Positions 32,795 through 36,274 of a stretch of 50,886 bases of DNA are shown here, piece by piece (the stretch's first letter is position 1; every line of letters starts with the position of its first letter). This stretch comes from Pseudomonadota bacterium (GTDB taxonomy: Bacteria > Bdellovibrionota_G > JALEGL01 > DATDPG01), in contig JAZDIZ010000196.1 in NCBI GenBank assembly GCA_043804515.1, positions 1 through 50,886 of the forward strand. Reading direction: 5' to 3'. The position numbers and the translations under genes were made by a program. Under the pieces are notes generated by a model, which was not told the DNA's origin, did not search any database, and was given only the letters and a program-made list of their open reading frames with translations.

Positions 32795-33775
32795 ATGGTT
32801 TCGAATTCCCATCCGGTCACCGCTTTCATCCAGAAGCATTTCCGGCACTTCAACGCCGCCGCACTCGTGGACGCCGCCGAAGGGTACAAAACGCACCTGG
32901 AAAAGGGCGGCAAGATGTTCGTCACGCTGGCGGGAGCCATGAGCACGGGAGAGCTCGGAATCTCTCTCGCCGAGATGATCCGCCAGGAAAAGATTCACGG
33001 GATTTCCTGCACGGGCGCCAACCTGGAAGAGGACGTTTTCAACCTCGTCGCCCACGAACACTACCGGAGGATTCCGAACTACCGGGATCTCACGCCGAAA
33101 GATGAAGAAAGGCTCCTCAAAGAACACCTGAACCGCGTCACGGACACGTGCATCCCCGAGGATGAGGCCGTCCGCCGGGTCGAAACGGCGATGCTGGAAA
33201 TCTGGCAAAAAGCCGATCGCGCCGGCGAATCGTTCTTTCCTTATGAATTTTTCTATCAGCTCTTCAAGAGCGGAAAACTCAAGCAGCTCTACGAAATCGA
33301 TCCCAAAAACAGCTGGCTCCTCGCGGCGGCGGAAAAGAATCTGCCGGTCTTCGTGCCCGGGTGGGAGGACTCCACGATGGGGAACGTGTTCGCCGCCCGC
33401 TGCATCGAGGGGAAGATCAAACGGACTTCGACCGTGAAATGCGGCGTGGAGGCCATGGCGACCCTCGCGGATTGGTATTCGAGAACGGCCAAAGAAAGCA
33501 GCGTGGGATTCTTTCAGATCGGTGGGGGGATCGCGGGGGATTTCCCGATTTGCGTCGTCCCAATGATTCGCCAAGATTTAAAACGCGACGTTCCGCTTTG
33601 GGGATACTTCTGCCAGATCAGCGACTCGATCACGAGCTTCGGCGGCTATTCCGGCGCCGTTCCGAACGAAAAGATCACTTGGGAAAAACTCGCCGCGAAT
33701 ACGCCCAAATTCATCGTGGAGTCGGACGCCACGATCGTCGCGCCCCTGATCTTCGCGTACGTATTGGGCTGGTAA
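32795..33775 (+). CDS. Deoxyhypusine synthase-like protein (probably polyamine biosynthesis)
   Basis: LAGAMST, TGANLEED, PGWEDS, IGGG, GGYSGAVPNEKITWEK and ESDATIVAPL. Confidence 0.92.
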   Translation: MVSNSHPVTAFIQKHFRHFNAAALVDAAEGYKTHLEKGGKMFVTLAGAMSTGELGISLAEMIRQEKIHGISCTGANLEEDVFNLVAHEHYRRIPNYRDLTPKDEERLLKEHLNRVTDTCIPEDEAVRRVETAMLEIWQKADRAGESFFPYEFFYQLFKSGKLKQLYEIDPKNSWLLAAAEKNLPVFVPGWEDSTMGNVFAARCIEGKIKRTSTVKCGVEAMATLADWYSRTAKESSVGFFQIGGGIAGDFPICVVPMIRQDLKRDVPLWGYFCQISDSITSFGGYSGAVPNEKITWEKLAANTPKFIVESDATIVAPLIFAYVLGW

Positions 33776-33810
33776 GCCCTACCTGACGCATAAGACCGTG
33801 TTCGCGGCGT

Positions 33811-35205
33811 CTCGCCGGTGAACGGCGTCGGAGTTTTTCCGGAGGCGAGAGACGAATTTCAGCAGTCGGTTAAGGGGGAGTTCTTCGGGGCACCTTACCG
33901 GTAAGGTGAGTAAAGATCGGTGCGAAAACCGTAGAAAAACTTTAAGAAAGAATGATTTTTTTCTTCGCTTTTTTCTTGACGGGTTTGAAACGGGCATTTC
34001 TTGGTGGTGGTGGTCGATCTCTATAAAGCCCTTATTCCAAGCGCATTTGCCGTGGGTTAATGTTTGTGTGCGTATTTGGATCGTTCTTCAAGTCGCGGTT
34101 TTGCGTGCCTCTGAGGACGTTCCAAAGCCCTTAAACAACGCATGGTAGCCTTCCTCAAAAAGGGAAGAGCCATGGATGATTCTCTCAATCTCGAAAGCCT
34201 TACGGATTCTCAACTCCATCTTCGGACGATGGAAATCGCCCAGAAAGAACAGCAGACGACCTTGGAGCTTTTGCACCATCTCCATGAGGTCGAAAGGCGA
34301 AAGCTTTTCGCCCAAAAAGGCTATGGATCTCTGTGGGAATATGTCGTTTCCGCTCTCTCCTATTCCGAATCCCAAGCCTCGGAAAGAATTGCGGCTATGA
34401 GACTCATGTTTCGAGTCCAAGAAGCCCAAGAAGCCTTAGAAAATGGAAAATTGGGCCTGACCCAGGCGGCCATGGCCGAAAGACACCTTCGGGCGGAAGA
34501 AAAGGAAAGCCATAAATCCGCGTCTGCTGAGGTTGCAAAAGATCTGATTTTCAAGATTGAAGGTAAATCGAAGAAAGAGACGGAACGAGTCTTAGTCTCC
34601 TTACGGCCCCAAGCGCCCAGAAAAGAGCAGATCCGGCCTATTTCCAGTCAAGAGACCGAGATCCGGTTCTCCATTTCAGCAGAAACCCAGAAAGAGATGG
34701 AGAGGTATTGGGAGCTGAAGGGCAAGTGCTCCGTATCCGAGCTCTTTTCCGCCTGTCTCCATTTCTATCTGCGTCAGAAGGATCCCCAGAAACAGGAAGT
34801 CAGGCCCAGATCGAATAAAACGAGGGCACTTTTTCCGGAAAAAGTCGATCCTCCGACCCGGTACATCCCAGCAGAAGTCAAACGAGAGGTCTGGAAGCGA
34901 TCAGAAGGCCGGTGCGAATACGTCGATCCTAGGACCGGGAGACGATGTGAGAGCCAATACCTTCTCCAATACGATCACATCGATCCTTTTTGCACGGGAG
35001 GAGCGCCCGACGAAGACAACCTCCGGCACTTGTGCAGGGCTCACAATCAGTATTTCGCAGGAAAGATGTTCCAGACCGAGGCGGGATTCCTTCGGGAAGG
35101 GCTATGACGCCGGCAGAACAACGGCGCCTGACCCCAGCCCCCTAAACAAATGCTGAAAATCGTCTGCAGACCTTAAATAAACCTCGGCCCACTTCACCGG
35201 CGGAG
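33811..35205 (+). mobile_element. Putative HNH-encoding element with long imperfect terminal inverted repeats
   Basis: 33813-33864 pairs ungapped with 35151-35202 (35/52, including 14/15 and 10/10 blocks); single ORF inside; lower GC than the flanks. Confidence 0.55.
34172..35107 (+). CDS. HNH endonuclease with DUF222-like helical N-terminus and RHH-like middle segment
   Basis: LLHHLHEVERRKLF...GYGSLWEY...LSYSE; RYIPAEVKREVW.R..GRCEY...C...YDHIDPF..GG...NL..LC..HN. Confidence 0.88.
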   Translation: MDDSLNLESLTDSQLHLRTMEIAQKEQQTTLELLHHLHEVERRKLFAQKGYGSLWEYVVSALSYSESQASERIAAMRLMFRVQEAQEALENGKLGLTQAAMAERHLRAEEKESHKSASAEVAKDLIFKIEGKSKKETERVLVSLRPQAPRKEQIRPISSQETEIRFSISAETQKEMERYWELKGKCSVSELFSACLHFYLRQKDPQKQEVRPRSNKTRALFPEKVDPPTRYIPAEVKREVWKRSEGRCEYVDPRTGRRCESQYLLQYDHIDPFCTGGAPDEDNLRHLCRAHNQYFAGKMFQTEAGFLREGL

Positions 35206-35260
35206 CCCACACCTCCGCTATCCGCTATACGACCCTCCGAAACCGGGATTATTTAAGAAG

Positions 35261-36274
35261 CTAGAACAGCTGCGTCCAGTCGCTGCCAACCACCTTCAAG
35301 AGGATTCCGTCGGTGCCGTCAGTTCCGACGGCGAACGAACCCGACGTCAACGCCAGAACACCGGTCAGTGAAAAGCTCTCCCCCGCGGGGTTCGTCACCG
35401 AGGCCCAGGTTGTGCCGTCGGAGACCAGGATCACGCCGTCCGTACCCACCGCCAGAATCCCGGAGTTGGACGTGCCCTGAACGGCGAGCAGGTTTGAAAC
35501 GGTATTTGTTTCATCTAGTTTCCAATTCGCTCCCGTACGATGCAGGATGATCCCCGCGTTCCCCACAATGAAAACGTCGCCCGACACGGGATCGACCCAG
35601 ACGGCGTTCATTTGCGCCCCCGAAGGAAGTAGATTCGTGACTGCGGTACCAATAGCTTCCCAGGTCGCTCCAGAGTTAGCGCTCACCTGAATGGTCTTAT
35701 GCGTCCCAACGGCGAACATCTCCGCAGTTGTGCCCCCGATCCCGAAGAGATTTTCCGTATCTGCCACACTGTTGGTAGTGGGCCCCCAAGACCCGCCACC
35801 TAGTCTTATGATGGTTCCGCTGTTGCCGACAGCCACAACTTCCGACGCGTCCAACGCAAAAACCGCATTTAGGTCGTTCGTTGTGGAACTGTCCTGAGAA
35901 GCCAACGTGGAGCCGTCGAAGAAGAGAATCGCGCCCCCCGTACCCACGAACCACACATTCGTTGCCGACGCGTTTTGAACATCGCACGTGACGCCATTCA
36001 GCGTTCTCTTGGTCGAGTCCAGAACCGTGAATGTGGAGCCGTCGCTGGAAACCAGGGGTTTTCCGCCGTCGCTCGAAACGAATATGTCCCCCCCTCTGGT
36101 CCGGCAAATCGCCGACAACGGGTTTTCCGCAAGGGAAGTCGCCGTCGAGCCCTCGTCGCCCGGTGGCGTCCCCGTCCCACCGACGGGCCCATTGCCGGTC
36201 CCATTTCCGGCATCGCCGGCAATGCAGGCCAGGAAGAGCACGAACACGGGGATCAGGAAAAAGAACCGTTTCAT
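35261..36274 (-). CDS. Lipoprotein with beta-propeller (BNR/Ycf48-like) repeats
   Basis: Lipobox FLA-C; about seven repeats of L..V......VG..G.I...DG..W. Confidence 0.75.
   Translation of the reverse strand: MKRFFFLIPVFVLFLACIAGDAGNGTGNGPVGGTGTPPGDEGSTATSLAENPLSAICRTRGGDIFVSSDGGKPLVSSDGSTFTVLDSTKRTLNGVTCDVQNASATNVWFVGTGGAILFFDGSTLASQDSSTTNDLNAVFALDASEVVAVGNSGTIIRLGGGSWGPTTNSVADTENLFGIGGTTAEMFAVGTHKTIQVSANSGATWEAIGTAVTNLLPSGAQMNAVWVDPVSGDVFIVGNAGIILHRTGANWKLDETNTVSNLLAVQGTSNSGILAVGTDGVILVSDGTTWASVTNPAGESFSLTGVLALTSGSFAVGTDGTDGILLKVVGSDWTQLF

Follow-up and report, generated by a model that had tools for sequence, protein, structure and literature searches.

A multicopy HNH nuclease gene with inverted arms and paired palindromes in a Bdellovibrionota_G genome

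REP13E12 was reportedly first described by Gordon et al. in 1999. The REP13E12, or '13E12 repeat', genes of Mycobacterium tuberculosis are DUF222-HNH genes whose spread is left unexplained in the consulted parts of the source (PMC10589994), and no mechanism for the spread of DUF222-HNH genes was found in the portions of the DUF222 literature searched. HNH genes of this build are very common and repeatedly multicopy. The subject of this report is a lone HNH nuclease gene between inverted non-coding arms in the window, i.e., the whole 50,886-nt stretch of DNA that was analyzed (contig JAZDIZ010000196.1 of assembly GCA_043804515.1, GTDB lineage Bdellovibrionota_G). The closest known system is the REP13E12/DUF222-HNH repeat family. 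On the best reading, a single copy of a self-contained selfish element, old yet intact, lies in the window. It belongs to a multicopy family with conserved gene-linked inverted arms, paired palindromes, sharp borders in one subfamily (B) and signs of purifying selection, and no copy was found in the relatives searched; the fold and the dimer of its protein are model predictions.

Copies, arms and borders of the element

The genome assembly (G000, in which the window is contig C196) comprises 2.73 Mb in 203 contigs and is 94% complete. A tblastn search with the HNH protein returned 37 high-scoring segment pairs on 34 contigs, 31 of them within 110 nt of a contig end. Of the 46 element-bearing segments, 5 are internal and 41 lie at contig ends, from which a multicopy family of about 25 copies is estimated. 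The length of the element is 1.4–1.6 kb across copies. No other long sequence of the assembly is repeated nearly as often (its depth reaches 19), and the other long repeats look, by eye, like ordinary genes in strain duplicates. With the family profile, 34 matches came from this genome and a single weak one from 40 relatives. Fourteen genomes of the same family or order yielded none; therefore, the locus is not vertically conserved. A tblastn search against plasmids gave no match at E<=1e-8. As a separate observation, the assembly mixes closely related strains, as seen from near-duplicate contigs at 80–95% identity (C175:15307-17349/C27, C45/C143, C137/C62), which by eye hold ordinary genes (SMC-like, Ser/Thr kinase, UDP-glucose dehydrogenase-like).

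End alignments distinguished at least two subfamilies; the window copy belongs to A, and most copies belong to B. The A copy in C61 shares 87% protein identity with the window copy, and B copies are 80–90% identical among themselves and about 60% identical to the window copy. Both subfamilies follow a common plan of left arm, perfect palindrome, leader of about 200 nt, open reading frame (ORF) and inverted right arm. The left arm is made of 1–3 direct copies of a unit of about 80 nt that opens with a motif, here called M (TTCAGAAGTCGGTTAAGGGGGAG or similar), and the right arm of the same units of about 80 nt, inverted.

The original prediction, an HNH-only mobile element candidate with long terminal inverted repeats, was based on the window copy, in which the flanks of the HNH gene were said to be reverse complements. 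All of the repeat strings it quoted were found in place when the window was re-read: AGACGAATTTCAGCA... at 33850-33880 opposes CCCCCTAAACAAATGCTGAAAATCGTCT at 35138-35165, and CGCCGGTGAA at 33813-33822 opposes TTCACCGGCG at 35193-35202. A repeat search delimited the inner arms as 33850-33877/35138-35165 (28 nt, 82%) and the outer arms as 33813-33836/35179-35202 (24 nt, 75%), the two arm pairs being separated by the same 27-nt gap on either side, as had been noted, and 45 of 70 positions match between 33811-33880 and the reverse complement of 35135-35204. When the left flank (33776-34141) was locally aligned with the reverse-complemented right flank (35108-35260), the score was 31, a value reached by 0 of 1000 dinucleotide-preserving shuffles (mean 18.0, standard deviation 2.5, maximum 30). 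The remaining descriptive claims also stood: the unit is lower in GC (0.43–0.53, against 0.56–0.65 in the flanking genes and 0.594 in the genome), lies between two convergent genes, and encodes no DDE, tyrosine, serine or HUH recombinase, its sole Pfam family being HNH (PF01844, 22.9 bits against a cut-off of 21.4). The features of the unit, followed by its neighbors, are listed below.

33776-33812, no strand: weak candidate for a decayed, outermost left-arm repeat unit, with about 60% by-eye likeness to outer units of other A copies
33813-33849, + strand: left outer half-unit (CGCCGGTGAA...), outer inverted repeat, partner of 35166-35202
33850-33880, + strand: motif M, left copy (AGACGAATTTCAGCAGTCGGTTAAGGGGGAG), kept in left arms of both subfamilies
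33891-33908, no strand: leader palindrome P1, CACCTTACCGGTAAGGTG, perfect over 18 bp, with a core that recurs in the leaders of 8–12 other copies
33971-34171, + strand: conserved leader, running from the invariant CTTGAC box (33975-33980) up to the start codon; a hairpin at 34150-34167 sequesters the ribosome-binding site (RBS)
34172-35107, + strand: HNH nuclease gene, 311 amino acids, with KorB/ParB-like DNA-binding and dimerization domains (1-205), a disordered linker (212-226) and the HNH domain (234-310)
34828-34845, no strand: ORF-internal palindrome P2, ACTTTTTCCGGAAAAAGT, perfect over 18 bp, encoding the linker residues ALFPEKV
35138-35165, - strand: motif M, right copy, inverted; inner inverted repeat
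35166-35202, - strand: right outer half-unit (...TTCACCGGCG), outer inverted repeat, partner of 33813-33849
35203-35260, no strand: possible decayed outermost unit of the right arm (weak), with by-eye likeness to outer M units of C79, C31, C22, C102 and C28
32795-33775, + strand: deoxyhypusine-synthase (DHS)-like ORF (PF01916, E 2.8e-42)
35261-36274, - strand: neighboring ORF with a BNR/YCF48-like match under the cut-off

The arms proved to be linked to the gene. Motif M is inverted at both ends in A and B copies and varies between the subfamilies in step with the gene, and 12 of its 13 matches in the genome (at <=4 mismatches) lie within HNH elements, so that it is not a general dispersed repeat unlinked to HNH genes. 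The inverted flanks are also conserved in paralogues, the M-type inverted repeat being the top match in four of the five copies that have both flanks. The 'long terminal inverted repeats' of the original prediction are thus real as inverted repeats but not terminal: because the repeat corresponds to the innermost M unit and half of the next unit, it is subterminal and one unit of a longer array. The sharp boundaries that were to be looked for exist in subfamily B, where, in an alignment of 13 copies, per-column conservation is 90–100% over the initial 300 nt of the left arm against 30–60% outside, and where this stretch is better conserved than the leader. The window's own subfamily A, however, lacks a sharp outer border, and its arms fade outward, by eye, into CAGGAAT/CCGGAAT-like heptamers near neighboring stop codons. 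In the window copy the outer units are barely recognizable by eye, the possible decayed right outermost unit extends to the stop codon of the neighboring gene, and the element probably fills the entire intergenic gap 33776-35260. A CGCCGGTGAAG...CCGAG...GAAGG stretch of the left outer half-unit recurs in the end arrays of other A copies, and the same half-unit contains a terminator-like pattern (33815-33831) with a T run after it. The relatives hold 11 DHS orthologues (64–71% amino acid identity), none of which has either neighbor gene within 1.5 kb.

Six full-length ORFs were compared and all are intact, with ratios of nonsynonymous to synonymous substitution rates (dN/dS) of 0.11–0.22 throughout; dS is 0.28–1.0 within B and >1.7 between A and B. 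Judged by these rates, the copies are old and under purifying selection, unlike a recent burst of an insertion sequence (IS) or a decaying passenger. The only clearly damaged ORF seen is the N-terminal part of an A-type copy at C19:7917-8183, which has an in-frame TGA and a frame change.

Paired palindromes, leader and predicted protein

The palindrome AACCTTACCGGTAAGGTT is the commonest perfect CCGG-centered palindrome of the genome, present 15 times in HNH ORFs and 8–12 times in leaders. Good sites number exactly two per element: the first precedes the start codon by about 280 nt, and the second lies in the linker codons. The sequences of P1 and P2 differ in the window copy, and compensatory variants of P1 occur in C61 and C88. 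At <=3 mismatches, 33 matches lie within elements and four outside; therefore, the palindrome is not the operator of a host regulon, and a LexA-type reading of it was dropped. A by-eye idea that the outer arm units contain degenerate palindromes was likewise dropped, as the search of the arms remained at chance level (about two expected).

The position of the internal palindrome is kept in distant relatives. Among 19 foreign loci (2 genomic and 17 metagenomic, with 31–58% protein identity), 12 have a palindrome of 16–24 nt at the same ORF position, with sequences that differ (ACTTCGGGCGCCCGAAGT, CTTCGCGCGCGCGAAG, TTCACTTTTTCCGGAAAAAGTGAA and CCGACTTCATTCAAATGAAGTCGG), and in four of these 12 (L042, L044, L047 and L051) the same palindrome is found again 110–290 nt upstream of the start. 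The common form consists of four bases, ten bases and four complementary bases, symmetric through the center. Because this symmetry is unbroken through the center, the palindromes, as sequences, are less suggestive of an RNA hairpin than of duplex DNA bound by a symmetric protein dimer. The relationships between copies differ upstream and downstream of P2 (e.g., 82% and 93% identity between C80 and C39), and this mosaic pattern suggests exchange between copies.

The HNH gene has an in-frame upstream ATG at 34142, but the true start is likely the ATG at 34172, behind AAGGGAAG, because all paralogues align from there. The small ORFs at 33906-34148 (+) and 33779-33997 (-) match no family. The CTTGAC box of the leader is invariant in an alignment of 14 leaders, two of them from foreign loci, and a sigma-70 promoter scan of the leader gave no match. 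Rfam searches over 33700-35350 gave chance-level matches only (best E 2.8), and RNAalifold on the 14 leaders gave no convincing consensus structure (-2.12 kcal/mol). By eye, the RBS hairpin (34150-34167) is seen in the 13 other leaders as well, with a stem that varies on both sides: CTTCC/GGAAG, TCTCCC/GGGAGA and, in a foreign locus, CTCTT/AGGAG.

The AlphaFold model of the HNH protein has a mean predicted local distance difference test (pLDDT) score of 85.7, falling below 50 in the linker (residues 212-226). In structural comparisons, residues 25-147 matched DNA-binding domains of KorB (Z 8.0 and 7.2), ParB (7.6), Spo0J (6.1) and SopB (6.0), and residues 220-304 matched HNH nucleases (Z 7.4–6.0), while a Foldseek search with the window protein model returned nothing below E 0.01. 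No CTPase domain of ParB was detected in the window protein. The predicted homodimer reached an ipSAE of 0.71, compared with 0.00 for the best of three controls; three runs share >=93% of contacts, and the pLDDT of the partner is >=77. In calibration, 20 of 30 solved homodimers and 1 of 23 solved monomers attained the ipSAE mark. The modeling supports, rather than shows, a homodimer of the HNH protein.

Across 25 relatives, 23 of which match HNH PF01844, little or no variation is seen at D268-H269, N283, N292 and the Cys/His ligands. In a profile search, 64,957 cluster representatives passed E<=0.001, and 7,113 passed E<=1e-30. The nearest Atlas clusters are mostly from Bdellovibrionota, and some carry DUF222 in 12–23% of their members. 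DUF222 (PF02720) itself has no match in the window protein and matches one of the 25 relatives (E 0.0026); one structural neighbor bears the DUF222 name.

Competing accounts of how the element spreads

The account preferred here, to which we give slightly less than an even chance, is that of an autonomous selfish HNH cassette whose protein drives its own spread in a homing-like manner. The element would comprise a promoter-leader, one gene and two arms of inverted units of about 80 nt (motif M plus spacer), and its product would be a dimer with a KorB/ParB-like helix-turn-helix domain, a flexible linker and an HNH nuclease. The dimer may bind both 18-bp palindromes and so restrain its own expression, mark its own DNA, or both, in a manner likened to KorB operators that act at a distance. 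The nuclease would then break intergenic target DNA just downstream of genes, near heptamer arrays with palindromic TTAA or CCGG centers, and host repair would copy the whole cassette, arms included, into the break, giving homing-like spread to dispersed sites. A bolder claim, offered tentatively and judged somewhat unlikely, is that of a new class of prokaryotic mobile elements in which a dimeric HNH protein is the sole mobility enzyme, its KorB/ParB-like domain targets the paired palindromes and the units of the end arrays, and non-homologous intergenic sites are reached with no DDE, tyrosine, serine or HUH recombinase. The IS-like element with an HNH nuclease as its only enzyme that was originally proposed survives as a multicopy unit with gene-linked inverted arms and no recombinase inside, but not as a simple IS with long terminal inverted repeats, since the repeat is subterminal, A has no sharp outer border and B is enclosed by a mariner/IS630-like terminal repeat that HNH-less elements also use.

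Several points weigh against the homing-like cassette. HNH enzymes hydrolyze DNA, and the literature, in the parts searched, gave no precedent for HNH-only spread to non-homologous sites. HNH-free heptamer arrays exist as candidate targets, but at 20–35 nt they are short as homology arms for homing. No empty allele was found in the assembly or in the relatives examined, whose DHS orthologues have other neighbors: in a comparison of 49 flanks (300 nt each) with the assembly, no flank recurred on another contig or continued across an unoccupied site, and no empty/filled allele pair was found. Nor does the assembly contain a solo inverted M-M' site as a possible homing target. The Z values of the fold matches are middling, in the range in which the tool warns of common arrangements. 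Flanking inverted repeats were found at 0 of the 19 foreign loci (E<0.01), save for a low-complexity run in L043; therefore, the arms are lineage-specific, and the arms of the foreign loci show no DNA likeness to those of this genome. Finally, the terminal repeat of B is Himar1-like and shared with miniature inverted-repeat transposable elements (MITEs) that lack the HNH gene, a sharing that suggests the action of a DDE transposase in trans.

B copies end with TTAACAGGTTGCTGAAAAAC on the left and its near-complement TTAACAGGCTGCGGAAAAAC on the right, where the similarity between copies stops. The terminal repeat is 20 nt long, with an invariant TA beside ACAGG, and its first 11 bases are identical to the mariner Himar1 inverted repeat, which opens with the same TAACAGGTTGG in the consulted parts of the source (PMC8616859). 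The same repeat bounds about eight HNH-less MITEs of 160–180 bp in this genome and a 137-bp MITE in the relative G001, which has no HNH copy; the terminal-repeat pattern has 30 matches in G000 and six in G001, as opposed to 0 for a reversed control. Given the Himar1-like repeat, the invariant TA and the HNH-less MITEs that share the repeat, B looks like an HNH cassette nested in a mariner/IS630-type shell. The terminal repeat of the MITEs, TAACAGGTTG[GC]TGAAAAA, closely resembles the Himar1 inverted repeat, and members of the family are located as follows.

C125:13021-13180, G000: MITE with the terminal repeat
C86:30026-30205, G000: MITE with the terminal repeat
C107:2830-3010, G000: MITE with the terminal repeat
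C175:15133-15300, G000: MITE with the terminal repeat
C59:22046-22217, G000: MITE with the terminal repeat
C89:454-590, G001: MITE with the terminal repeat

From these ends it could be argued that the HNH gene is a passenger in a non-autonomous MITE shell of mariner/IS630 type, moved in trans by a DD(E/D) transposase that was lost or not assembled, and has no role in movement. DDE_3 transposases, present in 5 of 16 relatives, would suit this explanation. Yet no PF13358/DDE_3 or IS630 transposase was found in the 94% complete genome (NF033545 remained sub-threshold at 24 bits), no transposase matching the MITE repeat was found in the G000 or G001 assembly, and the IS630-type genes of the relatives have terminal repeats that differ from the B repeat. 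Both flanks lie on one contig for a single B copy (C51), from which the possible TA duplication is taken. Moreover, intact ORFs at such low dN/dS would not be expected of a passenger, and the sites occupied are not those of the MITEs: 18 of 28 B ends abut the AAGGA|TTAA of AAGGATT/AATCCTT heptamer arrays, whereas the MITEs with the same repeat do not, and targeting therefore differs. Subfamily A, in turn, has no mariner-like terminal repeat and is nevertheless present at several unrelated loci; therefore, the cassette multiplies independently of the mariner-like shell, and a passenger role fits B but not A. As a whole, this explanation is considered unlikely. The other transposase-type genes of G000 are one rve (C50), one or two DDE_Tnp_1 (C144, C145) and five Y1_Tnp genes of RAYT/IS200-like type (C85, C171, C190, C153 and C39), the latter with flanking repeats of their own that are unrelated to the HNH element.

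The heptamer arrays raise a different question, namely whether the repeats are element ends at all or whether a free-standing HNH gene lands among pre-existing intergenic repeats. The arrays are an independent dispersed repeat, with 7 of 11 AAGGATT-type arrays and two of seven 'Y' cores free of HNH, and the mariner-like terminal repeat also occurs without the gene; the absence of flanking inverted repeats from the foreign loci would fit as well. However, motif M lies inside the sharply bounded and highly conserved B unit, nearly all of its matches accompany HNH genes, and it covaries with the gene of each subfamily. Landing among repeats is thus true for the heptamers and the mariner-like shell and false for M, and as a general explanation it is improbable. 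The 'Y' elements are built of (AAGGATT)n, a 25-nt core GATCCTTGGATTTCAGATCTAAGAG and (TTAATCC)n, and five of seven 'Y' cores have a TTAA site that has received an HNH-B end. Palindromic CCGGAAT/ATTCCGG arrays (e.g., C51:30140 and C106:3560) make up another heptamer family. Among the 'Y' elements of G000 are those at these positions.

C15:6587-6650: 'Y' element
C103:1582-1660: 'Y' element
C141:4687: 'Y' element
C153:1953: 'Y' element
C104:8668: 'Y' element

Less probable still is a host-useful paralogue family, e.g., of defense or repair nucleases, that multiplied by ordinary duplication and is not mobile: purifying selection and the age of the copies would agree with it, but the copies are always intergenic, lower in GC, sharply bordered and provided with conserved non-coding arms, were not found in the relatives searched, and break the assembly at 41 contig ends. 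The arms as a long fold-back RNA or single-stranded DNA used by the nuclease in the manner of an omega-RNA, the second option of the original prediction, can be given very little credence, for although the arms are complementary and a faint NCBIfam IscB match exists (HNH part only, 16.7 bits against a cut-off of 175), the left arm precedes the CTTGAC box (33971 on), 1.26 kb separate the two arms, neither an Rfam match nor a conserved leader structure was obtained, and RuvC and PLMP parts are missing.

Relation to known systems

With IS630/Tc1/mariner elements and their MITEs the HNH cassette has in common a B terminal repeat that resembles the Himar1 inverted repeat, the adjoining TA and the existence of HNH-less MITEs; however, neither the element nor the assembly contains a DD(E/D) transposase, and the window's subfamily A is without the repeat. 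Because no transposase is present, the cassette is not an IS630 member. The nesting in a mariner-like shell also serves as a warning that terminal repeats around such genes are not always the gene's own. As in repetitive extragenic palindromic (REP)/REPIN-RAYT systems, a nuclease gene is bracketed by inverted short repeats, but the enzyme is HNH rather than HUH, M is not dispersed as solo copies, and the flanks of the Y1_Tnp genes differ; since there is no HUH enzyme and there are no solo repeats, the cassette does not belong to REP/RAYT. A REP-like repeat, the hairpin GGGGACACCC-N4-GGGTGTCCCC, does occur in this genome, at C21:6527-6650 and about 30 other places. IscB/IshB (OMEGA) genes of IS200/IS605 offer an HNH domain, a transposon-borne gene and a long conserved leader; unlike them, the present element has no RuvC/PLMP, no Rfam match and no conserved RNA fold, and the lack of an omega-RNA sets it apart from IscB/IshB.

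The free-standing HNH homing endonuclease genes known from phages insert at a single homologous site of a related genome. They resemble the present gene in that a lone HNH gene could multiply by a break followed by repair copying, and differ in that about 25 copies are found here at unrelated intergenic sites with inverted arms of their own. KorB/ParB proteins share the fold of the N-terminal part (Z 8.0–6.0), the predicted dimer and cognate-looking perfect palindromes, one of them distant and upstream of the promoter region. The similarity is one of fold only and middling, and here the domain is fused to a nuclease.

The REP13E12/DUF222-HNH family remains the nearest relative. Like REP13E12, the element is a multicopy unit of about 1.4 kb with a lone gene, an alpha-helical N-terminal domain followed by a C-terminal HNH and no known recombinase, as far as the consulted parts of the literature describe it; unlike REP13E12, the window protein falls below Pfam DUF222 and belongs to another host lineage. 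Inverted M arms, paired palindromes and a mariner-like shell were not found in the parts of the literature searched on DUF222, REP13E12 and HNH repeats. The genome provides an unusually readable case, with about 25 copies, two subfamilies, conserved arms, a palindrome position kept in distant relatives, and a modeled fold and dimer that would fit the palindromes, and thus a workable example of how widespread nuclease genes multiply. If the bolder claim of a new class of elements is true, the same logic of HNH-only mobility would account for the DUF222-HNH '13E12' repeats and for related genes in the tens of thousands.

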